Source: a phage
Assembly: GCA_025471175.1 (NCBI GenBank)
Contig: GCA_025471175.1_4338.1
Direction: 5' to 3' (one strand)
Length of the DNA: 44,724 nucleotides
Position numbers and translations under genes: made by a program
Shown here: positions 1,318 to 44,724 of the stretch, one piece after another
How positions within the stretch are numbered: the stretch's first letter is position 1
Layout of the letters: each line of letters starts with the position of its first letter
The notes under the pieces: generated by a model
What the model was told of the DNA's origin: nothing
What the model saw: only the letters and a program-made list of their open reading frames with translations
Database searches by the model: none

Positions 1318-1381
1318 GATGAATCCTCCAGGTGCGTATTAAGTATGCAGTAACTGGAGGATACCACGGGTAGGAATTATC

Positions 1382-2575: not shown

Positions 2576-2577
2576 AA

Positions 2578-3302: not shown

Positions 3303-3332
3303 CTCTGTCTCTCCTCTCGTTTGTGTAAATGA

Positions 3333-3361
3333 ATAGTAGCCTATTCTATCCCAGTGTGCAA
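3333..3361 (-). promoter_or_regulatory. sigma70-like promoter with AATAG-N4-CTATT element
   Basis: Read on minus strand: TTGCAC-N17-TACTAT; spacer/-10 carries AATAGtagcCTATT; ~25 nt upstream of gene start 3302. Confidence 0.5.
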
Positions 3362-4534: not shown

Positions 4535-4569
4535 AACCATCACTCCTCTGTCTCATCCCGATAAGTGAA

Positions 4570-4598
4570 TAGTATCCTATTATGTTGGGGTGTGCAAG
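4570..4598 (-). promoter_or_regulatory. sigma70-like early promoter (leftward)
   Basis: Minus strand TTGCAC-N17-TACTAT; a ~37-nt block here is the exact reverse complement of the block at 27502-27538. Confidence 0.55.
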
Positions 4599-4644: not shown

Positions 4645-4679
4645 GAGCGAAACGAAACGAACGTGGTGCCGAAGGCACC
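4645..4679 (-). terminator. candidate intrinsic terminator/attenuator after leader copy A
   Basis: On minus strand ggugcc-UUCG-ggcacc hairpin (forward 4665-4679) followed by acguucguuucguuucg. Confidence 0.4.
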
Positions 4680-4860
4680 AAGAGTGAGTGAGTGAGCTTG
4701 CGGTTCTGACCCACGGCAAATCAGTAACTTAGATATTTAGGCGGGAATTACAATAGACTTTGGCCCTTCCGAATGCGCCAGCGAGCCTCACTCCACACGT
4801 CGAGACGTGCTCGTTTCGCCTGCCGCGCACCGCGGTCGCTTGTTCATACTTCACAAGCTC
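4645..4860 (-). ncRNA. candidate ~200-nt leader RNA / sRNA, copy A
   Basis: Predicted transcript from promoter 4867-4895 to terminator at ~4645-4679; 5' ~110 nt homologous to copy B, including a 34-nt identical block (4830-4863). Confidence 0.3.
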
Positions 4861-4895
4861 AGGACGAGCTTAGCATATTTCTTAGTAAAAGTCAA
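4751..4895. repeat. copy A of a ~145-bp dispersed repeat (other copy 37062-37204)
   Basis: Left block caatagaNtNtggcccttccgaaNgcgNcagcg 29/33 identical; divergent ~45-nt middle; 34-nt perfect block ccgcggtcgcttgttcatacttcacaagctcagg; similar right flank. Confidence 0.7.
4867..4895 (-). promoter_or_regulatory. promoter P_A (extended -10), leftward
   Basis: Minus strand TTGACT-N17-TAAGCT with TGc before the -10; same architecture as P_B at 37176-37204. Confidence 0.5.
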
Positions 4896-5000: not shown

Positions 5001-5171
5001 ATGACTATCAATGAAGTAGCTGAACGTATTGGGGTGACGCGCCAGACAATTAATAACTGGATTAAGAGTGGAAAGTTTCCTGATTGCAGCGTTAAAGTAA
5101 TGGGTCGCCGGATGCCGGGGACATTTGACCGTAATAAAGTTGAAGCGTGGATTAAGGAGAACGTGAAATGA
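5001..5171 (+). CDS. small HTH DNA-binding protein (AlpA/excisionase-like HTH)
   Basis: ORF track 4911..5171 (TTG); ATG at 5001 with AGGAG 8 nt upstream; MTINEVAERIGVTRQTINNWIKSGKFP is a helix-turn-helix. Confidence 0.6.
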   Translation: MTINEVAERIGVTRQTINNWIKSGKFPDCSVKVMGRRMPGTFDRNKVEAWIKENVK

Positions 5172-5380
5172 TTGGGCGTATGGGTTGTTACTTTGAAAAC
5201 GGTAAAGTTAAATACTGGTTTAAGTTTGCGTCAGAAATTACCGACAGCGGTTTCTACGCAGAAATATGTAAGCCTAATCATTTGTCGGAACCGACGCGCA
5301 TTATTAAGATGCCAATCGAGGTGTTAAGTAAATGCCGTTTCTATACTTCGGAGCGTGCGTGGTTTGCCGGCGATAAATAA
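5168..5380 (+). CDS. hypothetical protein (70 aa)
   Basis: ORF track; ATGA overlap with upstream gene; same 16-nt initiation region aggagaacgtgaaatga as the gene at 5001. Confidence 0.5.
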   Translation: MIGRMGCYFENGKVKYWFKFASEITDSGFYAEICKPNHLSEPTRIIKMPIEVLSKCRFYTSERAWFAGDK

Positions 5381-5448
5381 AAGAAACCCCAACGCCAGAA
5401 CGTCGGGGTCGAAGCACAAATCATCAAAGTAAGCACAAGGATTATACA

Positions 5449-5577
5449 ATGACGAAGTTAATAGTTCCACAGCTACGCCGCCAGAAACACGGCGCTGATT
5501 TCTTCGCACCGGTAAAGATGAACCGCGCAATGCGCCGTATGCAGGAAGCCTTAGAACGTGCGGAGAAAAAGAAATGA
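5449..5577 (+). CDS. hypothetical small basic protein (42 aa)
   Basis: Below ORF-track cutoff; AAGG RBS; stop overlaps ATG of primase-helicase. Confidence 0.35.
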   Translation: MTKLIVPQLRRQKHGADFFAPVKMNRAMRRMQEALERAEKKK

Positions 5578-7835
5578 ATATTGTTTTTGCAACGCTGCGT
5601 AATACATTCGATAAAAACCCGGTAGCCCGTGAAATGCCACTGGAGCAGTTTGTAGAGTATGTCTGCGATACATCGAAGCGCCTGTCCGTAGACCCGTCAT
5701 GGACTAAGGAAGAGTACGACGCGGCCAAGATTAAGCAGAAAGCAATTGCGCCTGTTGGTGGTCGCCGTAAGAACGCGATTCTGGAAGATAGTGTGGTTAA
5801 GTTCGACTTTGACCATCTCAACCGTACTCAGTACCGCGACCTGACCCGCAAATTCAAGAACGCTCCGTTCTTCAATATTCTGCACACAACGGCGTCGCAT
5901 CAGCACGCGTGTAAAAACGGTGATTACGCCTTTCGCGTTCTGGTTCCGGCTCGCACTCCGTTTAACTCTAACGACGCGTGGATGGTGCAACGTGCTATTT
6001 GTGCGGAGTTAGAAATAGACGAAGCGTTGCGCGACCACTGCACGGAAGACGGCAACCGCCTTATCTACCTGCCGCACAAAGAGTCGAAGATAACGGTTAC
6101 AGAAGGGCGTGTCATCCGTGCGGAGCGGTACATCAAGAAAGCCGAAGAGATGGGGCTGCGTAAACGTGAAGCTAAGACACTTGCCGCCGATGAGCACGGG
6201 CTTAACGCAGATATAGCGCATTTCTGCGAAGCAGAGCTTGGCCTTGACGCTTTATCTTCCGGGCGTGGGTATGAAGTGCCGTGCCCTAACGAACATCTAC
6301 ATACAGGCAAAGGCTCCACCAGCATCATGCTTGATGGTAAAGAAGTGCGCTTTGTGTGCCAGCACACGAATAACGGTGCTTGCACTGAGCTTAACCGCCG
6401 GCAACATTTGGCTTTGCGCATGTGCGGCCTGCCTGACGAGCTTAACGTAGACAAGCAACCTATCAGTATTAACAGCATTCGTGCGGCTCTGCCTGATTTA
6501 CCGGACGAAGATATTGAAGAACTACACCGCACAGAGAACGAGGAGCCTGTAACTTGTACGCTGGAAGACCTCGAAGACGAGCCGGAAGTAGAAAAAGAAC
6601 CTGCTTACCCCGTAGTAGACGGCCTTATGCAGACCAATGAGTCATTCTACATTTGCGCAAAGTCCCACACTGGTAAGTCAACATTTAGTATGGCGATTGA
6701 TGCTGCTATCGCCGCCGAAAAAAGATATGCGTTCGGCGGGGCTGAGGTCGCGGAAGGTCATGTGTTTATTTTTGCGGGTGAAGGTGCGCAGTCGTTCGAA
6801 CGACATAAAAAATCTTTGCAGATTGCCCTTGGCGATAACTTGGACCGCTTGCACATTATCGATTGTGTTGCGGAGGGGTGTAACTTACTAGACGAAGCAT
6901 GGCGACGTCAGGCGGTGAGAATGATGCGCCGTGTTGCCGGTGAAGAGAGAATTGTAAAGGTTACGTTTGATACTCTACAAACTTGCATACCGGGCTTCGA
7001 CGAGAACGACAACAGGTCGATGAAAGAAGCTGCGCAGGCGCTTAACGAAATAGCATCGACGCTTAACGCCGCGGTAGGTGCTATGGTGCACCCGACTAAA
7101 AACATCGATGAAACCGTACCATCCGAGAACGGCATGATGCCGAAGGGTGGTAGTGATTTTCACAACTCCATCGATAACGGGATGTTCCTGCATAAGCCGG
7201 ACAACGACAATAACTTAGAGATAAACCTGTATCACATAAAGAACAGAAACGGAGAACGGCAGAAAGCCAGAGGATTCGTAATACAGAAGATTCAGATAGC
7301 GGAACCGCCAGAAAAGAAAGAACCAACTCACAACTTCATGGGTCTTCCGGAAGGGTACAGTAGCGATGATGTACGCGATTTTGACGCAGGAAATCCACAT
7401 ATTGACGTCTTTGTTAACTTCAACGCCTTCTCTGTCTTCGTGAAGAAAGTAGAAGGCATGACCGACGAACAGAAGGAAGCAGTTAAAGAAAAGGTAGGCC
7501 AGTTCGAGAAACTGGATACCAAAGAAGCTACGGTTATTTACGCATTAGGTAAATTGCAGGAGCAGGGTGATGACAAGCGAGGGTTCTCCATGTCAGCTAT
7601 CGTCAAAGCCGCGAAAGAAGATAGTTACGGCGTGCCGATTAACGCTAATAACGACCTTAGAAAGAAACTGGAAGAGATGCACGAGGCCGGGGTTATAGTC
7701 TCAGGTCTGGATAACAACAACAGGCCCATACCTAAGCAGTACCGGCTGCCGTGGGGTATAAACGATAACAAGATTCCGAAGACAATATACGAGCCCAATG
7801 AGATGCTGACAGTGACAGAGGAGGATTTGGAATAG
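5574..7835 (+). CDS. putative DNA primase-helicase
   Basis: 753 aa; P-loop AKSHTGKST in C-terminal half; N-terminal half has Cys/His cluster and FDFDH-type motif suggesting a primase domain; first large gene of replication module. Confidence 0.65.
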   Translation: MNIVFATLRNTFDKNPVAREMPLEQFVEYVCDTSKRLSVDPSWTKEEYDAAKIKQKAIAPVGGRRKNAILEDSVVKFDFDHLNRTQYRDLTRKFKNAPFFNILHTTASHQHACKNGDYAFRVLVPARTPFNSNDAWMVQRAICAELEIDEALRDHCTEDGNRLIYLPHKESKITVTEGRVIRAERYIKKAEEMGLRKREAKTLAADEHGLNADIAHFCEAELGLDALSSGRGYEVPCPNEHLHTGKGSTSIMLDGKEVRFVCQHTNNGACTELNRRQHLALRMCGLPDELNVDKQPISINSIRAALPDLPDEDIEELHRTENEEPVTCTLEDLEDEPEVEKEPAYPVVDGLMQTNESFYICAKSHTGKSTFSMAIDAAIAAEKRYAFGGAEVAEGHVFIFAGEGAQSFERHKKSLQIALGDNLDRLHIIDCVAEGCNLLDEAWRRQAVRMMRRVAGEERIVKVTFDTLQTCIPGFDENDNRSMKEAAQALNEIASTLNAAVGAMVHPTKNIDETVPSENGMMPKGGSDFHNSIDNGMFLHKPDNDNNLEINLYHIKNRNGERQKARGFVIQKIQIAEPPEKKEPTHNFMGLPEGYSSDDVRDFDAGNPHIDVFVNFNAFSVFVKKVEGMTDEQKEAVKEKVGQFEKLDTKEATVIYALGKLQEQGDDKRGFSMSAIVKAAKEDSYGVPINANNDLRKKLEEMHEAGVIVSGLDNNNRPIPKQYRLPWGINDNKIPKTIYEPNEMLTVTEEDLE

Positions 7836-7843
7836 GTAAAAAG

Positions 7844-7866
7844 AAAGGGGCGTTAAGCCCCTTCAC
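7844..7866. terminator. hairpin terminator between helicase and repressor genes
   Basis: ggggc-gttaa-gcccc stem-loop; U-run on minus-strand side; repressor stop codon lies in the loop. Confidence 0.4.
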
Positions 7867-8068
7867 CAAACGCCAGCCACTTGGCGTCTACTTCAAGCAC
7901 TTCGGCTAGTTTAAACAGCGTCGCCGGTCGGACGTCCTGAGTTACTCCTAGTGCAAGCTGGTTAATCGCGCCCTGGGAAACGCCGGTCAGGACAGCCAGA
8001 CGGCGCTGGGAGATGCCGAGTTCTTTACGACGTTGTTCTACACGGGTGCCTAGTTCAGATGGTTGCAT
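7853..8068 (-). CDS. XRE-family (Cro/CI-type) HTH transcriptional regulator
   Basis: 71 aa; RKELGISQRRLAVLTGVSQGAINQLALG is a classic HTH; AAGGAG RBS; lone minus-strand gene in the plus-strand module. Confidence 0.7.
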   Translation of the reverse strand: MQPSELGTRVEQRRKELGISQRRLAVLTGVSQGAINQLALGVTQDVRPATLFKLAEVLEVDAKWLAFGEGA

Positions 8069-8095
8069 GTCAGTTACTCCTTAGTCAGTTGATAT

Positions 8096-8128
8096 GTGAA
8101 TAGTACCATATTAATTATTTTAGAAAAG
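8096..8128 (-). promoter_or_regulatory. candidate promoter of regulator gene with AATAG element
   Basis: Minus strand -10 TACTAT, weak -35; contains GTGAATAGTACC; back-to-back with promoter 8133-8161. Confidence 0.4.
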
Positions 8129-8132
8129 CCCA

Positions 8133-8161
8133 TTGACATGTGAATAGTTCGCTATTATAGT
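8133..8161 (+). promoter_or_regulatory. sigma70-like promoter with AATAG-N4-CTATT operator-like repeat
   Basis: TTGACA-N17-TATAGT; spacer tgtgAATAGttcgCTATta. Confidence 0.55.
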
Positions 8162-8189
8162 TAGCCCATACCAAACGAGAGGGGCAGAT

Positions 8190-8417
8190 ATGAACACAAT
8201 CACTGGGGCCATAGCTAAAGGTTTTCGAGCAATTTTCGGCGCTCCGCAAGAAGTGTGCACAAAACATAAATTTGTACTTTCTTGCGTAGTAGGGGATGAG
8301 TTTGATGGGTTCGATAAACTTGTTGTCTGTGACCATTGCGGGCAAGAAGCTATTCAACACTCAAACGGTAAATTTGAACTAATAGACGATAGCCTTACTG
8401 AAGGCGACGGTGAGTAA
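8190..8417 (+). CDS. hypothetical protein, Cys-rich (possible zinc ribbon)
   Basis: 75 aa; GAGAGGGG RBS; CxxHC near C-terminus. Confidence 0.5.
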   Translation: MNTITGAIAKGFRAIFGAPQEVCTKHKFVLSCVVGDEFDGFDKLVVCDHCGQEAIQHSNGKFELIDDSLTEGDGE

Positions 8418-8441
8418 CTTACACAAACAGGAGAGAAACAA

Positions 8442-8942
8442 ATGTTAGAGAAATTCTTAGTATTGCTGGAACGTTTCGTAGTTGCACATGAACTGATTGC
8501 CGCGAACAGTGCGAAACAAGTTGTTCAGGTTGCCACGCCGCTGGAAGTAGAGACGGTATCGTACACCAAAGAAGCGGTAGCTGAGTGCGCTGAAGAAGCA
8601 ACAAAAGAAATCCCGGTTGAAGGTGAAGACATCGTCGACACTAAACCGGCAGAAGAAGAGAAGCCAAAACGTAAGCCGCGTAAAGCTAAAGTAGAGGAGT
8701 CGACGCCAGAACCAGAAGAAGAGAAAGAAGAGGTCGATTACCAGTCTCTTCGTGACCAGATTCAGGCTATCGACGATGCAATTAACGAAGGTCCGAGCGA
8801 TGCCGCGTGCGACGATTCTGATGAACTGCTGGAAGAGTTCACCGGTAAGAAGATGAAGATTGCCGCGATTAAAGACGAAGACCTGGTCGAGTACCTGGAA
8901 CGCCTGACAGCAATCAAGAACAAGTATTTCGAAGAAGAATAA
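8442..8942 (+). CDS. hypothetical highly acidic protein
   Basis: 166 aa; C-terminal two thirds dominated by Glu/Asp. Confidence 0.55.
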   Translation: MLEKFLVLLERFVVAHELIAANSAKQVVQVATPLEVETVSYTKEAVAECAEEATKEIPVEGEDIVDTKPAEEEKPKRKPRKAKVEESTPEPEEEKEEVDYQSLRDQIQAIDDAINEGPSDAACDDSDELLEEFTGKKMKIAAIKDEDLVEYLERLTAIKNKYFEEE

Positions 8943-8985
8943 TTATCTCGCGGCCTTCGGGCCGCTTTAACTGAGGGTCGTAATT

Positions 8986-9258
8986 ATGATTTACCGACTC
9001 TACCGCGCCGTTGACAGGCGGGATAACACAGAGGCGTTGTGGCTGTTGCGTGCGCCGTCAGGTGCGCACCAGATGGAAGAGATGGCGTACTTAGGCAAAG
9101 TACCGCGGGCTAAAGATATAGGCCGTCATGTGTCGCAGATTAAGCGCACGACTTTTGCCAAGCCTGACTTTTATGTCTTCGAGTCGATGTATGGATGGGC
9201 CATGCATTGCCAGCACCAGACCAGACATTTAATTGACCAGTGGGAGAGCAGGGTATGA
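8986..9258 (+). CDS. hypothetical protein (90 aa)
   Basis: ORF track; stop overlaps next ATG. Confidence 0.45.
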   Translation: MIYRLYRAVDRRDNTEALWLLRAPSGAHQMEEMAYLGKVPRAKDIGRHVSQIKRTTFAKPDFYVFESMYGWAMHCQHQTRHLIDQWESRV

Positions 9259-9602
9259 CGGATAAATGGTGGCTTAATTTGCGCAGCGGTGACAAGGTTT
9301 ACACCGTCGGTGACCGCAGAAAGAACAGCGGCGTAGCTACTGTGTTACAAAACGGCAAAAAGTACATCCGCATTGCGCATGAAGCCCGGGCGCTCCGCGT
9401 GAATAAATCTTCTGGTAGGCTTGAGGATTACCCGAAAACATTAATATACAAAAGTGAAAAGCATCACATGGTCGCTGTTGACGCAAGACGTCAGTTCGCA
9501 GGAATGTTGCAACAGTTAAGCGACTTACATCGCGATGATTCTTTCACCCCCTCAGAAGAACAGCTACAGGCATTAAACTTGTATTTGGAGAGTTTACGAT
9601 GA
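9255..9602 (+). CDS. hypothetical protein (115 aa)
   Basis: ORF track 9240..9602; ATG at 9255 has GGAG upstream and ATGA overlap. Confidence 0.45.
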   Translation: MTDKWWLNLRSGDKVYTVGDRRKNSGVATVLQNGKKYIRIAHEARALRVNKSSGRLEDYPKTLIYKSEKHHMVAVDARRQFAGMLQQLSDLHRDDSFTPSEEQLQALNLYLESLR

Positions 9603-10840
9603 TTCTAAAAGAACGCGGCGGCAATAACGATGTTCACGCCTTACTTTCGCCGTCAGGTGCTAAAAAATGGCTGTCATGCGCGGCATCACTGGCCTGTGAA
9701 AAAGATATTCCTAACACGTCGGGTAAATCCGCCGTTACGGGGACAGCGTGCCACACCATAGCTGAAGTCCATCTCAACGCCTATATCCGCGGCACTGCGT
9801 TGCCGTTAGAGCGTGAAGTTGGCGCTTACGTGCTGGATGAGGGTAAAGGCCAGATTAAGGCGCTAATCAGCCCGATGAAAGGCGCGGTACTGATTACGGC
9901 GGACATGATTGAGCAGGTGCGAAAGTACACCGACTACTGCAAACCGATTATCGATGTAGCAACTTACGCCAAGCTGGAAATGCGCGTCAATCTTACTGAG
10001 GTATTGCATCCTGGGTATGAAGGCGTTGAGACGTTCGGAACCGCTGACCTTGTTGCCGTTCAGGAACTGGCTAACACTGACGGGCACATGCTTATCATCG
10101 GCGACCTGAAAACAGGACGGCATCGTGTCGAAGCGAAAGAAAACAAGCAGCTTATGCTCTACGCTCTAGGTGTTTATCGCCGACTCAAGAGACGTTATAA
10201 CATAACAACCGTTCATCTGGTCATCTTTCAGCCATACGCTGGCGGCGCGTCGGAGTGGGGCATCTCGGTTGAAGGTCTGGAACTGTTCGCTAAGTTTGCG
10301 CAGAAACGGGCGCTGTTAGCTCTTGATGCGTATTTCCGTGGTAAAAAGAACCTGAAAGCGTCGGACTTCAGGCCGTCTGTCGACGGTTGCCAATGGTGCC
10401 GTTTCTCAGAGCAGTGCGCCGCGCGTACAAAAACCGTCAACGCGGTGCTGGCGGAAGAACTGGAGGACGACTTTGCGCTGGAACTTACGCCGGAGGAACT
10501 CGTAGCTGAGTACGAGAAGTTGCCGTTGTTGCGCCAGCACATCGACAAGGTTGAGAAAGCTATGGCTGCCGCGTTGCATTCCGGTAAGAAAGTTCCTGGG
10601 TACAAGCTGGTTGAAGGTAAGATGGGCAATCGTGCGTGGAAAGACGCGGAGAAAGTAACAGAACTCTACGGCGACAAGCTGACTAAAGAAGTGCTCATGA
10701 CGCCGACCGAAGCGGTTAAAGTTGTGCCGGAAGAAGAACTGAAAGACTTCATCACACGTAAACCAGGTGCCCCATGCATCACAACGGCAGACGACAAACG
10801 GCCTGAGTGGAATCAGGTTAGTGAAGAAGATTTGGAATAA
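9599..10840 (+). CDS. PD-(D/E)XK-type nuclease, DUF2800/Cas4-like
   Basis: 413 aa; N-terminal ALLSPSGAKKWLSCAAS and C-terminal Cys cluster CQWCRFSEQC recalled as typical of DUF2800 phage nucleases. Confidence 0.55.
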   Translation: MILKERGGNNDVHALLSPSGAKKWLSCAASLACEKDIPNTSGKSAVTGTACHTIAEVHLNAYIRGTALPLEREVGAYVLDEGKGQIKALISPMKGAVLITADMIEQVRKYTDYCKPIIDVATYAKLEMRVNLTEVLHPGYEGVETFGTADLVAVQELANTDGHMLIIGDLKTGRHRVEAKENKQLMLYALGVYRRLKRRYNITTVHLVIFQPYAGGASEWGISVEGLELFAKFAQKRALLALDAYFRGKKNLKASDFRPSVDGCQWCRFSEQCAARTKTVNAVLAEELEDDFALELTPEELVAEYEKLPLLRQHIDKVEKAMAAALHSGKKVPGYKLVEGKMGNRAWKDAEKVTELYGDKLTKEVLMTPTEAVKVVPEEELKDFITRKPGAPCITTADDKRPEWNQVSEEDLE

Positions 10841-10844
10841 AGTG

Positions 10845-10873
10845 TTGACACCTGAATAGTTGGCTATTATAGT
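10845..10873 (+). promoter_or_regulatory. sigma70-like promoter with AATAG-N4-CTATT repeat
   Basis: TTGACA-N17-TATAGT; spacer cctgAATAGttggCTATta. Confidence 0.55.
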
Positions 10874-10929
10874 TCTAATCACTGGCCGGGCAGCTTCCCG
10901 GAGTAAACTAAAAACTGAGGAATCGAGAT

Positions 10930-11562
10930 ATGGGTATTAAGCTGAATCTGCGTAAAGTAAACACTGCCTGGGTTAACGTATTCGAACGCGAAAAAGACCG
11001 TGAAAACGATGATGGCTCCATCACTAAAGGCCAGTACAGCGCGACTATAATCCTGCCATCTGACCACGCGCAAATCGACGCGCTCTACGACACTGTCTAC
11101 GCTGTAGTTGAAGAAGCGTTAGGCGCAGCCGCTGCCGAGAAGTGGATGAAGTCCAACTACGGCGAAGGTAAGCACATGGATAAATGTGCAATTAAAGATA
11201 TTGCTGAACGCGACAATCCGTTTGAAGACTTCCCGGAAGGCTTCTACTTCAAAGCTAAGGCACAGAAACAGCCACTGATTGTAACATCTAAAAAAGGTGA
11301 GACTCAGGTAGAGCAGGACTTCAACGTAGACGGCGAACAGATTGAAGGTGAACAGGTTTACAGTGGCTGCGTAGCTAATGTAAGCGTTGAAATCTGGTTC
11401 AGCCAGAAATATAAAGTTCTAGGCGTTAACCTGCTGGCAATTAAATATGTTGGCGAAGGTAAAGCGTTTGGTGGTTCTAAAGTCGCCGCAAGCGTCAATG
11501 ACCTGGAAGACGATGACGATGAAAAAGATGAAGCACCTCGCCGCGAACGTCGTCGCCGTTAA
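10930..11562 (+). CDS. putative ssDNA-binding protein (DUF2815-like)
   Basis: 210 aa with acidic Asp/Glu-rich tail; sits beside the DUF2800-like nuclease and upstream of DNA polymerase. Confidence 0.45.
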   Translation: MGIKLNLRKVNTAWVNVFEREKDRENDDGSITKGQYSATIILPSDHAQIDALYDTVYAVVEEALGAAAAEKWMKSNYGEGKHMDKCAIKDIAERDNPFEDFPEGFYFKAKAQKQPLIVTSKKGETQVEQDFNVDGEQIEGEQVYSGCVANVSVEIWFSQKYKVLGVNLLAIKYVGEGKAFGGSKVAASVNDLEDDDDEKDEAPRRERRRR

Positions 11563-11582
11563 TATCTGAACCAATTTAACTG

Positions 11583-11605
11583 AGGCCCTTCATTGGGCCT
11601 TTTTA
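11583..11605 (+). terminator. rho-independent terminator
   Basis: aggccc-ttcatt-gggcct followed by TTTTT. Confidence 0.6.
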
Positions 11606-11651
11606 CTAGGGGTCGAAAATAATGTTTTTCTGTAAGCACGTATACCGATAC

Positions 11652-11777
11652 ATGAAGCCACTTCCGTGGTACGCGGATGAGTACCGCGCCGGGTACAGAC
11701 ATGTGTGGATTTGTCGTGATTGTATGAAAATAAGATTAAGCGAAACGAAGGCACTGGATTTAAGGAAAAAGAAATGA
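11652..11777 (+). CDS. possible small leader ORF (41 aa)
   Basis: ATG ORF whose TGA overlaps the polymerase ATG (ATGA); no clear SD. Confidence 0.25.
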   Translation: MKPLPWYADEYRAGYRHVWICRDCMKIRLSETKALDLRKKK

Positions 11778-14014
11778 GCTACTTATACCTGGACTTTGAA
11801 ACATTCTCCGAAGCCGATTTGAAGAAAGTTGGCGCCTACGCTTACGCCGAACATCCAACTACCGAAGTGCTAATCTGTACATATGCTTTTGACGACGAGC
11901 CTGTACAGGTATGGGACTGCACCGACGGCAGCGACATGCCGGGTGATTTGCACCGCGCACTGCGCCGTCTGGTGAAGCCGAACAGCCGCATTAAGATGGT
12001 GTGGCATAACGGCTCAATGTTCGACCGCCTCATCATGAAGCACTGCTGGGGATTTGATATTCCTGTAAGTAGCACCATCGACACGATGATTTGGGCGTTT
12101 CGCCACGCTCTGCCTGGCTCACTTGATGCATTGTGCGAAGTGCTGGGCGTATCTGCGGACAATGCAAAAGATAAACGCGGCAAGGCGCTTATTCAGCGTT
12201 TCGCTAAACCGACGCCGAAGAACTACAAAATCCGCCGCTACACCGCAGAAACACACCCGGACGAGTGGGCACTGTTCATTAAGTACGCCGTGAGCGACAT
12301 CACTGCGATGCGTGAAGTCTTCCATAAGCTGCCGCGTTGGGGTAACTCCGAGTTCGAGGACCGTGTACTGGAACTGGACCAGTTAATCAACGACCGCGGG
12401 TTTAAGGTTGACGTCGCACTGGCAGAAGCCGCAATTGAAGCCGTGGAGAAACACAAGGCACAGCTACAGGAAGAAGCCCAACGTAAATACGGCGGCTCAC
12501 TTACTGGTAAAGACTTCCTTCCGATTCTGCGTGAACTAGCACCGGCGCACCGAATCCACAATGCGCAGAAGTCAACGCTGAATGACCTGCTGGCGGATGA
12601 TGATTTGCCAGACGATGCCCGCACGATTATCGAAATGCGCCTCGGGGCCGCGTCCACGGCGTCAACGAAATATAACCCGCTGCTGTTGGGCCGCTCGTCG
12701 GACGACCGCCGCCGGGGTTGCATCCAGTATGGAGGGGCCAAGCGTACGTTACGGTTCGCGGGTAAAGGCTTCCAGCCACAGAACCTGGCGCGAGGGTACT
12801 ATCACGACGACCCGAAGAACGAAAAGAAGAAAGTACGTTATGACTGGATGTCAGAGAAGGACTGGTGGAGAGTAACACACCCATTGTCTCACGGAATCGA
12901 CCTGTTGTTAAAAGGCCGTGCGCATCGCCGTTTTGATGTGGCCAAGCTAACGGCATCGACGGTGCGCAGCTGCATAATACCGGAAGCAGGGTATAAGTTT
13001 GTCGTTGCCGACTACTCTAACGTTGAAGGCCGAGGGCTTGCGTGGCTGGCGGGTGAAGACGATTTAATAGAAGTATTTGTAAACGGGGTTGATGTGTACA
13101 AGAAACTCGCATCAACCGTGTTCAACGTTAGCTATGACGACGTAACAAAGGACCAAAGACAAATAGCCAAAGCAATGGTTCTGGGCCTCGGCTACGCGGG
13201 GGGTGTCGGTGCTTTCGTCACGTTTGCTAAAAACTTAGGTCTTGATTTGAATGATATGACACGCACTTTAGACGGAACTTTCCCGGACCATATTTGGGCC
13301 ACTACCGCACGCGGTTACGAGTGGGCACGTATCCAGGAGGCCAAGCGGCCGCCACGTCCTGGTGAAAAGGATGACCGACCATCATATATTCTTGATAAGA
13401 AAGTGTGGCGTACCTGTGACGCTTTAAAGCGTATGTACCGAGAAGCTAATCCTGCAATAGTCCAATTCTGGCGAGATATTGAAGACGCGGCAATGGCAGC
13501 TATCCGCAATCCTGGTAAAGAGTTCACCGCAGGGCCGCGGGGAGTTAAGTTTTCGCGCAACGTAGAAACAGACAACAACGGCAACAAAGTCGCGGGTTGG
13601 TGGTTGCGCATGACGTTGCCGTCTGGACGCGTTATGTCTTACCCAGGCGTCGGATTGAGTGTATCGAAAGAGACAGACGAAGATGGAAAGGTGTCTACTA
13701 ACGTGCGCATCAAGTACCAGGGCGAAAATCAGTTAACCCGTCAGTGGGGCTTTCAGTACACCTATTCCGGTAAACTGGTGGAAAACTGCACGCAGGCGCT
13801 GTGCCGTGATTTGCTGGCTAATGCGCTGCTGAACGTCGAAGCAAACGGCTACCCGATTGTGCTTCATGTTCACGATGAGATTATCTGCGAGACACCAGAT
13901 ACGCCGGAATACAATGTCGCAGAGCTTGAGCGATTGATGTGCGAATTGCCGGAATGGGCGGAGGGTTTCCCTCTTGTAGCGGAAGGTGCGGAGTTAAAAC
14001 GCTATGCTAAGTAA
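11774..14014 (+). CDS. family A DNA polymerase with 3'-5' exonuclease domain
   Basis: ORF track 11720..14014; ATG at 11774 has AAGGA RBS; LYLDFETFS exo motif; ADYSNVEGRGLA (motif A-like), RQIAKAMVLGLGYAGG (motif B-like), HVHDEI (motif C). Confidence 0.9.
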   Translation: MSYLYLDFETFSEADLKKVGAYAYAEHPTTEVLICTYAFDDEPVQVWDCTDGSDMPGDLHRALRRLVKPNSRIKMVWHNGSMFDRLIMKHCWGFDIPVSSTIDTMIWAFRHALPGSLDALCEVLGVSADNAKDKRGKALIQRFAKPTPKNYKIRRYTAETHPDEWALFIKYAVSDITAMREVFHKLPRWGNSEFEDRVLELDQLINDRGFKVDVALAEAAIEAVEKHKAQLQEEAQRKYGGSLTGKDFLPILRELAPAHRIHNAQKSTLNDLLADDDLPDDARTIIEMRLGAASTASTKYNPLLLGRSSDDRRRGCIQYGGAKRTLRFAGKGFQPQNLARGYYHDDPKNEKKKVRYDWMSEKDWWRVTHPLSHGIDLLLKGRAHRRFDVAKLTASTVRSCIIPEAGYKFVVADYSNVEGRGLAWLAGEDDLIEVFVNGVDVYKKLASTVFNVSYDDVTKDQRQIAKAMVLGLGYAGGVGAFVTFAKNLGLDLNDMTRTLDGTFPDHIWATTARGYEWARIQEAKRPPRPGEKDDRPSYILDKKVWRTCDALKRMYREANPAIVQFWRDIEDAAMAAIRNPGKEFTAGPRGVKFSRNVETDNNGNKVAGWWLRMTLPSGRVMSYPGVGLSVSKETDEDGKVSTNVRIKYQGENQLTRQWGFQYTYSGKLVENCTQALCRDLLANALLNVEANGYPIVLHVHDEIICETPDTPEYNVAELERLMCELPEWAEGFPLVAEGAELKRYAK

Positions 14015-14131
14015 ATTGATTATCGCGGTACTGGCGGGATTCGCCGCCGGTGTCTACCGTCACGAGGGTCAATACTGCATGACTGTCGCCGTATTGGGTA
14101 TGTTCATCGCAATTTATCTGTGGGTGCTGGA

Positions 14132-14221
14132 ATGAAAATTTACTGGTTATACGAAGAAGACTGTAGAATCTGTCCGCGCTGCGGGATTGAGCATACGAAA
14201 CGTGAGGGGTGCATATTATGA
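14132..14221 (+). CDS. possible zinc-ribbon peptide (29 aa)
   Basis: CRICPRCG...C; start and stop both in ATGA overlaps. Confidence 0.3.
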   Translation: MKIYWLYEEDCRICPRCGIEHTKREGCIL

Positions 14222-14370
14222 CAATGTTTGTATTTTGGACGACAGTAACCATGCTCGCACTGTTACTCGGCGCGGGAATAGCCGCGATGTTCTGTTACGG
14301 TCTGTTCTTTAAGTTTGTCGGTGTTGCCGTTCTCGGTGGGGCTTTCCTTACCTGGATGTTGCGGTCATGA
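14218..14370 (+). CDS. possible small membrane protein (50 aa)
   Basis: Hydrophobic; stop overlaps VRR-NUC ATG. Confidence 0.3.
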   Translation: MTMFVFWTTVTMLALLLGAGIAAMFCYGLFFKFVGVAVLGGAFLTWMLRS

Positions 14371-14651
14371 CTAAAGAGGGCCGCGTACAGAAATACGCAA
14401 AAGAGCGATTCGAGGCCATCGGCGGCCTCGTTCGTAAACTTTCCTACGAGGGGCGCTCGGGTGCCCCCGACCTGCTGGTAATTCTCCCTGGCGGCATCGT
14501 CTGGTTCGTCGAGGTGAAGAAAGACGAAAACGCGAAGCCGGGCCCCCACCAGCTACGAGAGCACGAGCGGATGCGTAAACGTGGTGCAAATGTTTTTGTC
14601 GTTGGGTCGTTTAAACAGGTTGACGACCTAATAGCGAACTATTATAGTTAG
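14367..14651 (+). CDS. VRR-NUC domain nuclease
   Basis: 94 aa; GAPDLLVILPGGIVWFVEVK fits the VRR-NUC PD-(D/E)XK pattern. Confidence 0.6.
   Translation: MTKEGRVQKYAKERFEAIGGLVRKLSYEGRSGAPDLLVILPGGIVWFVEVKKDENAKPGPHQLREHERMRKRGANVFVVGSFKQVDDLIANYYS
14620..14648 (+). promoter_or_regulatory. sigma70-like promoter with AATAG-N4-CTATT repeat
   Basis: TTGACG-N17-TATAGT; spacer acctAATAGcgaaCTATta; overlaps 3' end of VRR-NUC gene. Confidence 0.5.
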
Positions 14652-14681
14652 TCCCACACCAACAATATAAGGAATTGAGAA

Positions 14682-14873
14682 ATGAAACACGAATATGACC
14701 GCAAACCAGCACGTGACATCGTACCGGGCGACATGATTTTCAACGTTAAGACCCGCCAGCCTGTTGCCGTTGATACGGTGTTCGTCGAGTCGAATGGTAA
14801 ACTGGTTATCGAAGATGCGACCGGTAACGTTACGGCGTTCGGGCGTAAAGAGCTGGTGCTGGTGGCGAAATGA
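14682..14873 (+). CDS. hypothetical protein (63 aa)
   Basis: ORF track; downstream of promoter 14620-14648. Confidence 0.45.
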   Translation: MKHEYDRKPARDIVPGDMIFNVKTRQPVAVDTVFVESNGKLVIEDATGNVTAFGRKELVLVAK

Positions 14874-15799
14874 ACTATTACAATGAGTGGGATAAAGGCG
14901 CAGCCGCGTGGCTGCGTGAATTAATAAAACAGGGTCACATACCTTTTGGAGTTGTAGATGAAAGAAGCGTTACAGAAGTTAAGCCAGAAGACCTCGACGG
15001 GTTCACCCAGTGTCATTTTTTCGCTGGTATTGGCGGCTGGCCTCTCGCGCTCAGACTTGCGGGAGTTTCGGAAGATACGCCTATCTGGACGGGAAGCCCG
15101 CCTTGCCAACCGTTTAGCGCGGCAGGAAAGCAACTCGGACAGTTCGACCCGAGACACCTCGCACCTGTGTTCCTCGACCTCATCAGCGAGTGCAGCCCTC
15201 CAGTCCTCTTTGGGGAACAGGTTGCGCCAGCAATTGCAAAATCGTGGATGTGCGATTTACAAGCTCATCTGGAAGGAGAAGACTACGCCGTCGGGTTTGC
15301 TGTACTCCCAGCTTGTAGCATCGGTGCACCGCACAAACGTGACAGACTTTTCTTCGGCGCGTACAACCTGGCCCACACCGGCGGTATCACTGATAACAAA
15401 CGACGTGAACATGCGCAGCACGGACGGCAGGACGAAACCGAACAAACTGGGATGGGCCGCTGCGATGGTGACTTGGCCTACACCGACAGCGAACGACTAC
15501 AGGGGGAGTGGGGAGACAGTGATTCGCAAGGACGGGAAGGACAGGACATTCGACAAGCTGGACTACTCGACGGAGCAGGGGCCGAAAATAACACAACCTA
15601 TTCGCATCACGGCTTCTGGTCAGATGCTGACTGGCTCGGATGCCGGGATGGAAAATTCAGGCCAGTTGAATCCGGCACATTCCCGCTGGCTAATGGGATA
15701 CCCGCCAGAGTGGGACGATTGCGCGGTTACGGCAATGCCATCGTCCCGCAAGTAGCTGCTGAATTTATAAAGGCATTCATGGGGGCGGTAGATGAGTAA
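14870..15799 (+). CDS. DNA (cytosine-5)-methyltransferase
   Basis: FAGIGGW (motif I), [12 protein letters not shown] (motif IV PCQ), LFGEQV (ENV-like motif VI with N to Q), HKRDRLFF (motif VIII), GYGNAIV (motif X). Confidence 0.75.
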
Positions 15800-17216
15800 G
15801 TTTCAAAGGCGTGAATACCAGAAGCTAATGACTTCGTTCATGTTGAAACACCCTCGCTGTAATATTTGGGCTTCGATGGGTGCGGGCAAAAGTTCCGCAA
15901 CGATGTGGGTACTCAACCGCCTGTTTCGCAACGGGCAACTTACAGAAGAGGACCGCGTGTTAATCCTAGCCCCGTTACGTGTTGCGTCCGGCACGTGGCC
16001 CGCAGAACAAACTAAGTGGGGTTTCCCGTGCCTGAGTGTCGTAGATGCAACCGGTTCAGAGAAGCGCCGCATCGCGGCGCTGGAGTCGGACGCTAACGTG
16101 GTGTGCACCAACTACGAAGTTATCGAGTGGCTGATTGACTACTACGGCAAAGACGACTGGCCTTTTACGGTTATCGTTGCCGATGAAAGCACGAAGCTGA
16201 AATCATTCCGTAGCCGTTCAGGTGGAAGCAAGCGCGCAAAGGCGCTAAGTAAAGTTGCGTTCGGTAAGGTTAAGCGTTTTATCAACCTGACCGGTACGCC
16301 GTCACCTAACGGCCTCAAGGACTTGTGGGGGCAGAACTGGTTTATCGACGCTGGCGAGCGCCTCGGTTCTTCATACACTGCGTTCACCGACCGGTGGTTT
16401 AACTCGGTGCAGGAAGGTAAATCGGCTATGGCGCGAAGGTATCGGGTACGCCCGGGCGCGGATAATGAGATTCATCAGAGGATGAAAGACATTAGCCTGA
16501 CGATTGACGCCGCCGAGTGGTTTGGTTGTGAAGCACCTATTATCGTGCCGGTGGAAATTGACCTGCCGAAGAAAGCGCGTCAGGCGTACATAGATATGGA
16601 GGAGAAGCTATTCGCAGAACTGGAAAGTGGGGAAGTTGAAGCGGCTAACGCCGCGGCGAAGACGTCGAAGTGCTTGCAGATTGCATCTGGTGCCGTATAT
16701 GTGTCAGGGCCGGACGGAGAAGCAACGAAAGACTGGGAGAAAGTGCACGACACGAAGCTGGACGCGCTGGAGTCCATTGTTGAAGAGTTGCAGGGTGCGC
16801 CGTTACTGGTGGCCTATCAGTTCAAGCATGAGCTTGAGCGCATCCTGAAACGTTTCCCGCAGGCACAGGCGTTTGCCAAAGGGGCCAAGGGTAATAAGCA
16901 GATGGAAGCGTGGAACCGCGGTGAAATCGAGATTTTGTGCGTGCATCCCGCATCAGCCGGCCATGGTTTGAATTTACAGGACGGCGGCCATCATCTGGCG
17001 TTCATCTCGCAAGGCTGGAACCTTGAGCACTATTTGCAGGTCGTGGAGCGTATAGGTCCGGTCCGCCAGAAACAGGCAGGCCACGAACGACCGGTGTTCC
17101 TTTATCACATCGTTGCTAAAGACACGCTGGACGAGGTTGTTGCCGCGCGTACCGACGAGAAGAAAACGGTGCAGGAAGAGTTGCTTAATTACATGAAGAG
17201 ACGAGGTAAGAAATGA
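15792..17216 (+). CDS. SNF2-family helicase
   Basis: Walker A ASMGAGKSSAT, DEST box, C-terminal helicase motifs. Confidence 0.75.
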   Translation: MSKFQRREYQKLMTSFMLKHPRCNIWASMGAGKSSATMWVLNRLFRNGQLTEEDRVLILAPLRVASGTWPAEQTKWGFPCLSVVDATGSEKRRIAALESDANVVCTNYEVIEWLIDYYGKDDWPFTVIVADESTKLKSFRSRSGGSKRAKALSKVAFGKVKRFINLTGTPSPNGLKDLWGQNWFIDAGERLGSSYTAFTDRWFNSVQEGKSAMARRYRVRPGADNEIHQRMKDISLTIDAAEWFGCEAPIIVPVEIDLPKKARQAYIDMEEKLFAELESGEVEAANAAAKTSKCLQIASGAVYVSGPDGEATKDWEKVHDTKLDALESIVEELQGAPLLVAYQFKHELERILKRFPQAQAFAKGAKGNKQMEAWNRGEIEILCVHPASAGHGLNLQDGGHHLAFISQGWNLEHYLQVVERIGPVRQKQAGHERPVFLYHIVAKDTLDEVVAARTDEKKTVQEELLNYMKRRGKK

Positions 17217-17446
17217 AGATCAAACAACATTTGGTCAAAGAAGTATCAATAGACGGCAGCGGTGGTGTGTACATAGCGAATCACAGAGAAAAAGCGGCGG
17301 TATTATGGTCTTTTGACCCAGGCGCGACAGCCGAAAATACCGCAAAAATAAAGTTTATTAACTGGGATTTAATACAATGTAAGAATAAAACACGACTTGG
17401 ACGTTTCTTGGCTCTAGTACCGACTGTATGGAGAATTTCTAAATGA
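17213..17446 (+). CDS. hypothetical protein (77 aa)
   Basis: ORF track; ATGA overlap with helicase. Confidence 0.45.
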   Translation: MKIKQHLVKEVSIDGSGGVYIANHREKAAVLWSFDPGATAENTAKIKFINWDLIQCKNKTRLGRFLALVPTVWRISK

Positions 17447-27504: not shown

Positions 27505-27533
27505 TTGCACACCCCAACATAATAGGATACTAT
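27505..27533 (+). promoter_or_regulatory. sigma70-like promoter of the moron
   Basis: TTGCAC-N17-TACTAT; ~37 nt identical (reverse complement) to early-left promoter region 4563-4599. Confidence 0.55.
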
Positions 27534-27574
27534 TCACTTACACCAACAATGTTAACTCAAACAGGAGCTACCCC

Positions 27575-36373: not shown

Positions 36374-36455
36374 AGTCAGTATGTCCCCTGGACGTTGGAA
36401 TCCGGGCCTCCCGGATTTACATGTCAAGAATAAATTATTCCAACATACAAGGCAA

Positions 36456-36719
36456 CTATTCCAGAATATTCCTCACGTAATCCTGCAACATGAACACTTT
36501 CAGTCTCAGTTGCCGTACACATTCGGCGTTCTGAACGTCGATAGCTAAATCCTCGTCAGCGTCGCTACTTGGCGGTGCCAGTTTGCACGGCGGCTGCATC
36601 ATCGTCGTATCCGGGGATGGAATTGGCGTTGGCAACGGCGTGGGACTTGAGCAGGACGCGAGCATCGTCGAAAGTGCACACGCTGCGGCCAGGCGTTTTA
36701 ATGTACTTAACGACTTCAC
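36456..36719 (-). CDS. o-spanin (Rz1-like lipoprotein), embedded
   Basis: 87 aa; LSTMLASC lipobox, Pro-rich; out of frame within the i-spanin gene. Confidence 0.55.
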   Translation of the reverse strand: MKSLSTLKRLAAACALSTMLASCSSPTPLPTPIPSPDTTMMQPPCKLAPPSSDADEDLAIDVQNAECVRQLRLKVFMLQDYVRNILE

Positions 36720-36960: not shown

Positions 36961-36997
36961 TTCTCGATAAGTAAAGCCCCGCCTTAAAGCGGGGCGC
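36961..36997 (-). terminator. candidate intrinsic terminator/attenuator between P_B leader and late genes
   Basis: Stem gccccgc/gcggggc (forward 36976-36995) followed on minus strand by UUUACUUAU; ~15 nt upstream of spanin RBS. Confidence 0.4.
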
Positions 36998-37169
36998 TAG
37001 TCCTTATCATTTAAACATAGAAACGGCGTAATCTCAGTAAACCAGTTACTTTTTACACAAGCAATAGAGTATGGCCCTTCCGAACGCGTCAGCGTAACTA
37101 CACTCAGGACTTACGTCCCGCTCCGTTACCTGCCCGCGCCGCGGTCGCTTGTTCATACTTCACAAGCTC
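36961..37169 (-). ncRNA. candidate ~200-nt leader RNA / sRNA, copy B
   Basis: Predicted transcript from P_B (37176-37204) to hairpin 36976-36995; homologous to copy A; no other promoter seen before the late operon. Confidence 0.3.
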
Positions 37170-37204
37170 AGGTGGAGCTTATCATATTTTCAGTGAAAAG
37201 TCAA
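37062..37204. repeat. copy B of the ~145-bp dispersed repeat
   Basis: See copy A; 34-nt identical block at 37139-37172. Confidence 0.7.
37176..37204 (-). promoter_or_regulatory. promoter P_B (extended -10), candidate late promoter
   Basis: Minus strand TTGACT-N17-TAAGCT with TGa before -10; same as P_A. Confidence 0.5.
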
Positions 37205-37218
37205 CTATTCGAATAGTT
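37203..37218. promoter_or_regulatory. perfect 16-bp palindrome, candidate regulator binding site
   Basis: AACTATTCGAATAGTT is its own reverse complement; abuts the -35 of P_B, centre ~41 bp upstream of predicted TSS; shares GAATAGT with the early promoter elements. Confidence 0.5.
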
Positions 37219-37269
37219 TATTCCAACGTTTACAATTGAGTGGAATAACTGGAATACGTAAATAAATAG

Positions 37270-37299
37270 TTTACAGACACCAACATAATAGGGTACTAT
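37270..37299 (+). promoter_or_regulatory. sigma70-like promoter with AATAG element
   Basis: TTTACA-N18-TACTAT; other strand reads AATAGtaccCTATT; AGGAGA RBS then ATG 37327. Confidence 0.5.
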
Positions 37300-37326
37300 T
37301 CAGTTAAATTAAACAGGAGATGATAA

Positions 37327-42864: not shown

Positions 42865-43020
42865 TTACCCGGTGATATCTCCGCCGTCTACCAGTGCTAA
42901 CGGGATTCTCACTTCACCGTTGAATGTTTCGGCGTACCAGAACTTCTCACATTGCGTTACGCTGAAAACATCAAGTTCTGATGTAGCGCCTGTCTTCCAG
43001 TACACCGTTAACTTTTTCAT
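42865..43020 (-). CDS. hypothetical small protein (51 aa)
   Basis: Below ORF-track cutoff; ATG overlaps upstream stop; followed by hairpin aagccctc-cgtag-agggctt. Confidence 0.35.
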   Translation of the reverse strand: MKKLTVYWKTGATSELDVFSVTQCEKFWYAETFNGEVRIPLALVDGGDITG

Positions 43021-43253
43021 ACATCACCCTCCTCTTTAGCAATGCGTTGCTCAGTTTTAGTGATACCACGGCGCGTGAATAACACCGGGCTTGTCTTAAC
43101 GTGCGTCATCAGACGGTTGTTATAAATTACATGGCGCTCGCAATCAACGTCTTTGCTGTACTTCGCAATCGTCATTTCGTTGATGCCGGTTTGTCGGCAT
43201 GTCTCCGCCATCGAGCCGTATTCTTTAATCAGGTTCGGAATGCTGGTAATCAT
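43017..43253 (-). CDS. small HTH DNA-binding protein
   Basis: ORF track 43017..43277; ATG at 43251-43253 in ATGA overlap; helix-turn-helix like N-terminus. Confidence 0.45.
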   Translation of the reverse strand: MITSIPNLIKEYGSMAETCRQTGINEMTIAKYSKDVDCERHVIYNNRLMTHVKTSPVLFTRRGITKTEQRIAKEEGDV

Positions 43254-44566: not shown

Positions 44567-44724
44567 TTTCCAAACACTCCTTTAGTTTTCAGATTATTGC
44601 GGTAGAACTGCATCACATGTTCGTTATGGAAGTTACTCATCTTCTCTACTCCGTTCTCGTTGTCGATGGAGTAAATATAATTGGTGTCAGAGTAATAGTC
44701 AACTAGTCATTGCAGAAAATAGAT

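Follow-up and report, generated by a model that had tools for sequence, protein, structure and literature searches.

Does a perfect 16-bp palindrome lying directly upstream of a phage promoter mark the binding site of an activator, or does its symmetry have another origin? The question arose from an earlier note on a stretch of 44,724 nucleotides (contig GCA_025471175.1_4338.1 of GenBank assembly GCA_025471175.1; this whole stretch is called the window below), in which the palindrome AACTATTCGAATAGTT abutting a candidate late promoter, P_B, was taken for the site of a protein that activates P_B and represses early promoters carrying the same half-site. The window is a near-complete genome of a Kagunavirus coliphage of the Guernseyvirinae, a group (Kagunavirus, Jerseyvirus) from which the genomes of several hundred phages of E. 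coli and Salmonella are available, many of them isolated for therapy or biocontrol. Our analysis points to a different arrangement, to which we give a probability of roughly 45%: judged from sequence comparison, the palindrome would be the contact point of two regulatory elements, with P_B weakly damped by an operator-like site and the GAATA/GGAATA sites further upstream acting as a second input. The palindrome is the least important part of the finding, which defines a control region made up of a promoter, a weak operator-like site and a conserved dyad with repeats, and adds a conserved, covarying non-coding RNA that heads virion operons and is absent from Rfam. The elements concerned are as follows.

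37203-37218, no strand: perfect 16-bp palindrome AACTATTCGAATAGTT, two tail-to-tail copies of GAATAGT, read from the sequence
37176-37204, minus: promoter P_B, with -35 TTGACT (37204-37199), 14 nt, TG (37184-37183), one variable nucleotide and -10 TAAGCT (37181-37176)
37196-37209, no strand: 9/10 operator-like site AAAAG-TCAA-CTATT (AAAAGTCAACTATT; minus strand AATAG-TTGA-CTTTT), including the left arm of the palindrome
37211-37223, no strand: dyad GAATA-N3-TATTC, including the right arm of the palindrome, centre near -48
37242-37256, no strand: GGAATAACTGGAATA, in which GGAATA is directly repeated at a distance of 9 bp (near -75 and -84)
37051-37170, minus: core of a structured non-coding leader RNA, copy 1 (covariance-model match of 130 bits)
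36976-36995, minus: GC-rich hairpin GCCCCGC-TTTAAG-GCGGGGC followed by TTTACTTAT, terminator-like in this lineage
4664-4895, minus: copy 2 unit, with promoter TTGACT-N14-TGc-TAAGCT (4895-4867), RNA core (4861-4744) and UUCG hairpin (4680-4664)
4744-4861, minus: RNA core, copy 2 (covariance-model match of 106 bits)

The palindrome and its half-site

The palindrome is present at 37203-37218 and perfect, and AACTATTCGAATAGTT has this single match in the window even at up to three mismatches. In 200 dinucleotide-preserving shuffles of the 44.7-kb window, perfect palindromes of at least 16 bp occurred 0.9 times on average, and at least one was found in 61% of the shuffles; the lone copy of the window is within chance expectation. 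Its half-site is another matter. The 7-mer GAATAGT occurs 11 times, ten of them in non-coding DNA, which makes up 8% of the window (binomial p ~1e-10), and among these ten, seven are arms of the operator-like dyads described below and two are the arms of the palindrome. The half-site that the earlier note saw in both kinds of site is real in the form of this 7-mer and is part of the regulatory vocabulary of the genome.

As a conserved unit, the palindrome did not hold up when 31 distinct Kagunavirus-type sequences, one intermediate (L022) and ten SETP3-type sequences were compared. It is perfect in 28 of the 31 Kagunavirus-type variants, a near-invariance that is uninformative because the whole intergenic region is equally invariant: its 375 bp are at least 95% identical in ~160 records and exceed the flanking genes in conservation. 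The intermediate sequence has AACCATTAGAATAGTT in its place, with the arms changed at two positions and the promoter kept, and the SETP3-type Jerseyviruses carry the non-palindromic TACTTTTTGAATAAAG upstream of the same promoter, the distance from AAAAGTC to TATTCC staying at 16 nt. It is also missing from the paralogue of the promoter at 4895-4867. Moreover, the half-sites diverge in the palindrome (CTATT-CG-AATAG) and converge in the operators (AATAG-N4-CTATT), and therefore one symmetric dimer cannot read both sites alike; a position-weight matrix built from the eight operator sites gave no match at the palindrome.

These properties would be explained if the palindrome were the junction of two elements built from the same AT-rich word rather than a stand-alone activator site. 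Its left arm, CTATT (37205-37209), would be the right half of the weak operator-like site on the -35 hexamer, and the GAATA of its right arm (37211-37215) would supply the left half of a dyad shared across lineages. A perfect 16-mer arises only in this lineage because CTATT and AATAG are reverse complements and lie here 2 bp apart.

Promoter P_B and its paralogue

P_B directly abuts the palindrome on the minus strand and is, from its sequence, a well-supported candidate sigma70 promoter with an extended -10 and a distance of 17 bp between the hexamers. The support comes from the conservation of its contact bases, the existence of a paralogue and the conserved RNA downstream. The candidate promoter of the earlier note is indeed conserved at contact positions and varies at others: across lineages, the -35 is retained, as are the TG and three bases of the -10 (T, A and the last T), while the base after the TG (A, C, G or T) and much of the spacer vary. 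The Jerseyvirus form is T(T/A)GACT-N14-TGt-TACGCT. The pattern TTGAC-N15-TGnTAnnnT has only two matches in the window, P_B and the paralogue, each directly followed by one of the two RNA copies. That P_B depends on an activator, on the other hand, finds little room in these data, as its -35 agrees with the consensus at 5 of 6 positions (TTGACT) and is joined by the TG, and the paralogue has neither palindrome nor GGAATA array upstream. The two copies share repeats with 86% identity over 70 nt and 88% over 33 nt.

Of three features by which a class II activator site can be recognized, one was found, namely a dyad centre near -41.5 that overlaps the -35 region: the centre at 37210.5 falls there if transcription starts at 37169, about 7 nt past the -10 hexamer. 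The position about 41 bp upstream of the start is thus reproduced, for a start that is itself inferred. The other two features, a deficient core promoter and a dyad conserved together with the promoter, were not found.

On the plus strand, a promoter-like sequence, TTCACA-N18-CATATT, overlaps the minus-strand -10 in both copies (37159-37188 and 4850-4879). That of copy 2 would face the HTH_17/primase operon, which is otherwise without an obvious promoter; the sequence is not conserved in the SETP3-type loci.

Operator-like dyads within promoters

The motif AATAG-N4-CTATT is present in seven exact copies, with 0.01 expected, starting at 3332, 4568, 8143, 10855, 14630, 27521 and 37287 in a motif search; an eighth site, AATAGTACCATATT at 8099-8112, deviates at a single position. 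Promoter-like sequences contain all eight, in the spacer or the -10 region, at the coordinates listed in the earlier note. AATAG-N4-CTATT is the top inverted repeat both in the window and in SETP3 and is conserved in Jerseyvirus; phage SE1 showed neither the motif nor a strong matrix match. Operator-like anatomy is evident in invariant 5-bp arms, a 4-bp centre that differs at every site and a location in the core promoter, with two dyads flanking the start of the XRE gene. Two classes were distinguished. In TTGACA-N4-AATAG-N4-CTATT-ATAGTT (8133, 10845, 14620), the dyad occupies the spacer, with its centre near -18.5 of TTGACA-N17-TATAGT promoters, and in TTGCAC-N10-AATAGG-N-TACTATTCA (3361, 4598, 27505, 37270), it covers the -10, with its centre near -12.5 of TTGCAC-N17-TACTAT promoters.

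3332-3345, promoter on minus: dyad in the TTGCAC-N17-TACTAT promoter upstream of the holin/endolysin block (motif search)
4568-4581 and 27521-27534: dyads of the TTGCAC-N17-TACTAT type (motif search)
10855-10868 and 14630-14643: dyads in the spacer of TTGACA-N17-TATAGT promoters (motif search)
8099-8156, no strand: an exact dyad (8143-8156) and one with a single mismatch (8099-8112), located where the XRE gene and the replication operon diverge
37270-37300, plus: promoter-like sequence TTTACA-N18-TACTAT, the divergent promoter of a clamp-like gene, with operator AATAGGGTACTATT at 37287-37300
44674-44707, minus: promoter TTGACT-N17-TATATT (44702-44674) with its -35 in the 9/10 dyad ACTAG-TTGA-CTATT (44694-44707), upstream of the NinH-like and terminase genes

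The holin and endolysin genes (278-3302, minus) sit downstream of the operator-bearing TTGCAC-type promoter at 3361-3333, and the dyad promoters are therefore not all simply early.

Besides these, the two minus-strand TTGACT promoters in front of virion genes each have a 9/10 site centred on the -35 hexamer. The site at 37196-37209 is centred on the -35 of P_B, a position from which occlusion rather than activation is predicted. SETP3 again has 9/10 sites at both orthologous TTGACT promoters, with AATAGTTGACTAGT at the place orthologous to the dyad at 44694-44707.

Conserved blocks upstream of P_B

Read on the plus strand, the blocks kept in both lineages are GAATA (37211-15), TATTC (37219-23), TTTAC (~37230-34) and GGAATAACTGGAATA (37242-56), and GAATA-N3-TATTC is considered a conserved dyad because its blocks survive in both. 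It has two exact copies in the window and, at up to one mismatch, six compared with 1.19 expected. The copy next to P_B is kept in the SETP3-type loci as GAATA-CTT-TATTC; in L022, the spacing is N4. The best conserved upstream block is GGAATAACTGGAATA, which is identical in the Kagunavirus-type and SETP3-type consensus and unique in the window.

36428-36440, no strand: the other exact copy of GAATA-N3-TATTC, in the spanin/scaffold junction; the minus strand reads GGAATAATTTATTC-TTGACA, with a hairpin after it at 36417-36399

The conservation of this twin reaches as far as phage SE1, in which the operator motif and the RNA are both missing. The junction as a whole (36399-36475) reads GGAATATTCTGGAATAGTTGCC..GGAATAATTTATTC-TTGACA on the minus strand, followed by the hairpin AATCCGGGAGGCCCGGATT, and also holds a degenerate copy of the operator motif with a matrix score of 16.8.

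Host regulators were also considered for GAATA-N3-TATTC. The ARG box is TGAAT-N4-ATTCA, and a host ArgR box was rejected on spacing, since five bases separate GAAT from ATTC here. The consensus sequences of CRP, TyrR, IHF, DnaA and the UP-element do not fit either.

Candidate DNA-binding proteins

All three small helix-turn-helix (HTH) proteins that the earlier note had named as candidates are supported by Pfam.

7853-8068, minus: XRE/HTH_3 protein of 71 aa, candidate operator binder (Pfam HTH_3, E = 2e-12)
5001-5171, plus: HTH_17 (excisionase/PrtN-like) protein of 56 aa, candidate binder (Pfam HTH_17, E = 1e-9)
43017-43253, minus: NinH-like protein of 78 aa, candidate binder (Phage_NinH, 26.2 bits, below the cut-off of 29.8)

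The architecture of the dyads and the two sites beside its gene speak for the XRE protein as the putative operator binder; the comparative data do not clearly bear this out. Across the group it is bimodal, with either 95-99% or ~50% identity, and SETP3 keeps the dyad arms despite an XRE protein that is only 49% identical. SE1 has an XRE protein (42%) without AATAG-N4-CTATT and lacks both the motif and the HTH_17 protein. HTH_17 is 77-89% conserved across genera (77% in SETP3) and 60-100% identical in 443 records; that its presence appears to track the motif is a lead, drawn from one independent loss. As a binder of GAATA-N3-TATTC, HTH_17 is disfavoured because SE1 keeps the junction dyad without it. 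The NinH-like protein is present in SETP3 and in SE1 (69% in the latter). A comparison of the XRE recognition helices of the window, SETP3 and SE1 did not single out a binder.

A structured leader RNA downstream of P_B

The comparative data show that the RNA core of roughly 120 nt following each TTGACT-N14-TGn-TAAGCT promoter is conserved, covarying and, as far as sequence can tell, non-coding. Two unpaired bases separate its 5' hairpin, P1, from a long and irregular one, P2-P3-P4, after which comes a single-stranded AAGGGCC..CUAUUG; P2 is formed by CCG-C-GGNGC paired with GCN'UUCGG, and P4 is capped by a tetraloop-type loop. A covariance model built from 21 sequences found 55 instances, 36 of them distinct and all in Kagunavirus/Jerseyvirus-type DNA, and diverged versions fold independently to the same shape. 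In the alignment, 93.4% of the cells were paired, compared with 29-44% when the partners were slid, and 13 pairs were changed on both sides, compared with 1-3 for slid partners. One pair of P2 is seen as C-G, U-A and A-U. Of the 36 sequences, 34 retain two neighbouring G-U pairs, and therefore only the minus strand fits.

A small protein gene in this intergenic DNA was rejected: only one frame ('AFGRA..YC') is shared, and it is broken or shifted by indels and often without a start codon. Searches with Rfam gave no match in the whole window at the gathering score and only chance-level hits at the two loci (E ~1 or above). The RNA model had no matches in E. coli genomes, SE1 or PMBT14, and as model R1 it found nothing in HK022 at E <= 10. 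In bacterial genomes, the RNA pattern was no commoner than expected by chance, apart from one Jerseyvirus contaminant of 738 bp; its matches in viral contigs all lay in contigs of up to ~45 kb, most of them 41-45 kb. No description of the RNA was found in the literature.

Downstream, the unit of promoter, RNA and hairpin of copy 1 runs into the spanin-scaffold-capsid operon, while copy 2 with its promoter heads the other long minus-strand operon. The hairpin of copy 1 ends 24 nt before the start codon of the spanin gene (ATG 36951), and therefore transcripts of the capsid operon must pass through it. Both copies end in a GC-rich hairpin. A U-rich tail is found only in copy 1 of Kagunavirus; the Jerseyvirus and copy-2 counterparts are stable and have no U-run. 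Further terminator-like hairpins lie within the minus-strand operons at 3476-3455, 239-210, 32-1, 39440-39425 and 37873-37853. A Q-like antiterminator was found neither among 20 small proteins scanned with PHROGs and Pfam nor among the annotated proteins of fFiEco02 and SETP3.

Some details of the leader are recorded here as separate observations. Its conserved single-stranded tail, GGAAGGGCC-N6-UAUUG (37056-37085 and 4750-4780, minus), holds a Shine-Dalgarno-like run with a UUG ~10 nt on; copy 2 has a UAA directly after this UUG (a start-stop), whereas mini-ORFs of 3-6 codons begin with it in copy 1 and SETP3. The 3' part of copy 2 contains a (CTCA)n run at 4682-4696, the number of units varying, with more in L080. 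SE1 has a different, hairpin-rich leader of ~300 nt upstream of its spanin gene (L096, 33200-33520, minus), which shares a ..AGTCTATTC.. block and is undetected by the RNA model. Long structured leaders at the spanin position may be general in the subfamily.

Proposed organization and alternative explanations

In the organization that we propose, P_B would work with the host sigma70 RNA polymerase unaided. The binder of AATAG-N4-CTATT, be it XRE or HTH_17, would shut the eight promoters with strong operators and would occupy the weak -35-centred sites of the two TTGACT promoters only at high concentration, so that P_B would be damped later or less than the others by differential affinity, not activated. 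The GAATA/GGAATA sites (~-48, -75 and -84) may bind a second factor, possibly the NinH-like protein, XRE or a host protein, which would give copy 1 a regulation absent from copy 2; its sign could be positive or negative. The probabilities that we assign to this and the other readings overlap, and the readings are not mutually exclusive.

Several points weigh against this proposal. The start near 37169 and the label 'late' for P_B are both inferred, and a literature search for transcript mapping in Guernseyvirinae, including MB78 and Jerseyvirus, found none. The near-invariance of the 16-mer in 28 of 31 variants would fit a real, lineage-specific dimer site as well, and the polarity of the half-sites becomes irrelevant if the binder is a monomeric HTH_17/Xis-like protein, in which case the idea of a single protein survives. 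The -35-centred 9/10 sites may be due to chance, given that the register at P_B is shifted by 3 nt between the window and SETP3, and the dyad matches with one mismatch number four, with ~1.3 expected by our own arithmetic. For the RNA, alignment A2 was fitted to the model, although the covariation in P2 and P3 is already seen in the MAFFT alignment, which was not. The stability of the RNA compared with shuffles is unremarkable (z = -0.6 to -1.75), and the case for it rests on covariation because thermodynamic stability is uninformative.

How, then, does the original idea of one dimeric HTH protein, acting as a class II activator at -41.5 of a late promoter and as a repressor of eight dyad promoters, compare? 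It accounts for the position of the centre with a start at 37169, for the strongly non-coding GAATAGT common to both site types and for the near-invariance of the palindrome within the Kagunavirus-type lineage, and a virulent phage that relies on host polymerase needs some late switch. The part of it that concerns operator-like dyads and a common half-site stands. Yet the symmetry is broken in L022 and in the SETP3-type phages, where promoter and operator motif persist, the polarity and spacing of its half-sites are opposite to those of the operators, P_B has a nearly complete -35 with TG and a paralogue that does without the palindrome, and a 16-bp palindrome is expected by chance, so that we regard the idea as improbable. 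That last figure, 0.9 per shuffled window, speaks at the same time for a palindrome without any function, a chance arrangement in a region conserved for its promoter, its RNA and recombination boundaries near a variable slot. The invariance of the 16-mer says nothing against this in a region that is conserved throughout, and the conservation ends at ~37256, where the cargo genes vary. What speaks against it is that each arm consists of the 7-mer that is nearly restricted to operators elsewhere and that the right arm belongs to a cross-lineage dyad with an exact twin at 36428-36440; we hold it to be unlikely, though worth keeping in mind.

Temporal control could also lie mainly in the RNA, with a constitutive promoter, a leader that is put-like or governs read-through of the hairpin at 36995-36976, and DNA sites of secondary importance. 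Two paralogous copies with the same special promoter, each heading a long minus-strand operon with internal terminator-like hairpins, and a structure conserved with covariation would be expected in this case; the hairpin also lies too close to the spanin start for a promoter to fit in between, and the scan of 20 small proteins gave no Q-like protein. Against it stand the lack of any hit of the RNA model in HK022, the missing U-runs behind the RNA in Jerseyvirus and copy 2, the other promoters (3361, 44702) that could restart transcription and the different leader of SE1, and we rate it as rather unlikely. By analogy with put, one may go further and imagine both RNAs as cis-acting, RNA-only processive antiterminators. 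Polymerase leaving the two TTGACT-N14-TGn-TAAGCT promoters would turn terminator-resistant and read all 32 kb of minus-strand genes for lysis, packaging, head and tail; the timing of the copy that precedes the capsid genes would fall to the GAATA/GGAATA sites, with half of the palindrome among them. This is a speculative extension to which we give little credence; if it were true, the two RNAs would represent a family not described before and would act as the late switch in many therapeutic phages, which form a large group.

Comparison with earlier descriptions and known systems

The motif component of this region has already been published, while the RNA is a new item. In the fBC-Eco01 paper, seven 'phage RNA polymerase promoters' with the consensus tgAATAGTa-ccTATTat-T were predicted with PHIRE, and the Golestan paper likewise gives seven PHIRE promoters; motif and count are the same as for AATAG-N4-CTATT here. 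Both credit a phage RNA polymerase, whereas the sites lie inside ordinary sigma70-type promoters in the window. The attribution is untenable for phages without such a polymerase; none is annotated in fFiEco02 or SETP3. Our analysis corrects this misreading: the repeated motif is found inside host-type promoters and is not a phage-polymerase promoter. A term search of the accessible text of both papers returned no mention of the palindrome, and neither the minus-strand TTGACT promoters nor the RNA are described there.

The dyads resemble the Cro/CI operators of 434, P22 and lambda, which are dyads of 14-17 bp under HTH dimers, in being 14 bp long with invariant arms and a free centre, in lying over the spacer or -10 of eight promoters and in the presence of two of them beside a gene for a 71-aa HTH_3 protein. 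They differ in that the phage is virulent and its sites are spread genome-wide rather than clustered in a single immunity region, and in that the binder is only a candidate: XRE is 49% identical between genera that share the motif, and HTH_17 is 77-89% identical and missing together with the motif. The 16-bp palindrome, with its reverse half-site polarity, differs as well.

The arrangement at P_B recalls lambda PR'-6S-tR' with Q, where a competent promoter and an untranslated RNA of ~200 nt with a terminator-like hairpin also precede lysis and virion genes. It differs in the lack of a Q-like protein among the scanned proteins and in an RNA that covaries and comes in two copies; a conserved covarying structure and a second copy are not known for the lambda 6S/PR' RNA. 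With put of HK022, the phage shares two paralogous structured RNAs by promoters that head long operons with internal terminators, and each has two stem-loops with a short linker. The model, however, reveals no similarity in sequence or structure in HK022, and the element here is larger. In sequence, the unit of promoter, RNA and hairpin agrees with neither the lambda nor the HK022 system. PrtN (on the P-box) and small HTH_17 proteins of the Xis/Cox type bind arrays of short repeats. The likeness to them lies in a small HTH_17 protein, given as pyocin activator or excisionase in some records, and in a short-repeat array upstream of a virion-gene promoter; the difference is that the repeat sequences are unrelated and that SE1 keeps GAATA-N3-TATTC without HTH_17.

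Genome context and further features

The 3 kb around the palindrome are 95% identical to Escherichia phages Ivi and fFiEco02 and match 333 phage records, throughout from the Kagunavirus/Jerseyvirus group. The gene map combines the annotation of the relatives fFiEco02 and SETP3 with the outcome of Pfam and PHROG scans; almost all genes outside the replication block lie on the minus strand.

5001-17446, plus: replication genes
4543-278, minus: small genes, holins, endolysin
44640-37877, minus: NinH-like, terminase, portal and head genes (the order runs across the window ends)
36951-29382, minus: spanins, scaffold, capsid, tail tube
27397-17609, minus: tail genes

The endolysin gene is followed by two strong minus-strand terminators, a hairpin at 10-32 with nine T and a hairpin at 218-236 with TTTTATTT. 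Beyond them lies the good promoter TTGACT-N17-TATATT (44674-44707), a region that looks like the restart point for the packaging and head genes. Upstream of P_B, the stretch from ~37256 on is a variable cargo slot between conserved DNA blocks, which holds a clamp-like gene (phrog_3007), an HNH gene or nothing, depending on the phage.

Perfect palindromes of at least 12 bp are scarce in the whole window, with 4 compared with 12.4 +/- 3.3 in the shuffles, which is consistent with restriction-site avoidance. The 738-bp contig mentioned above (L123, NZ_JACVEL010000048.1), which belongs to an assembly of Taishania pollutisoli, carries the Jerseyvirus GGAATA array, the promoter, the RNA and the spanin start and is almost certainly a phage contamination of that assembly.

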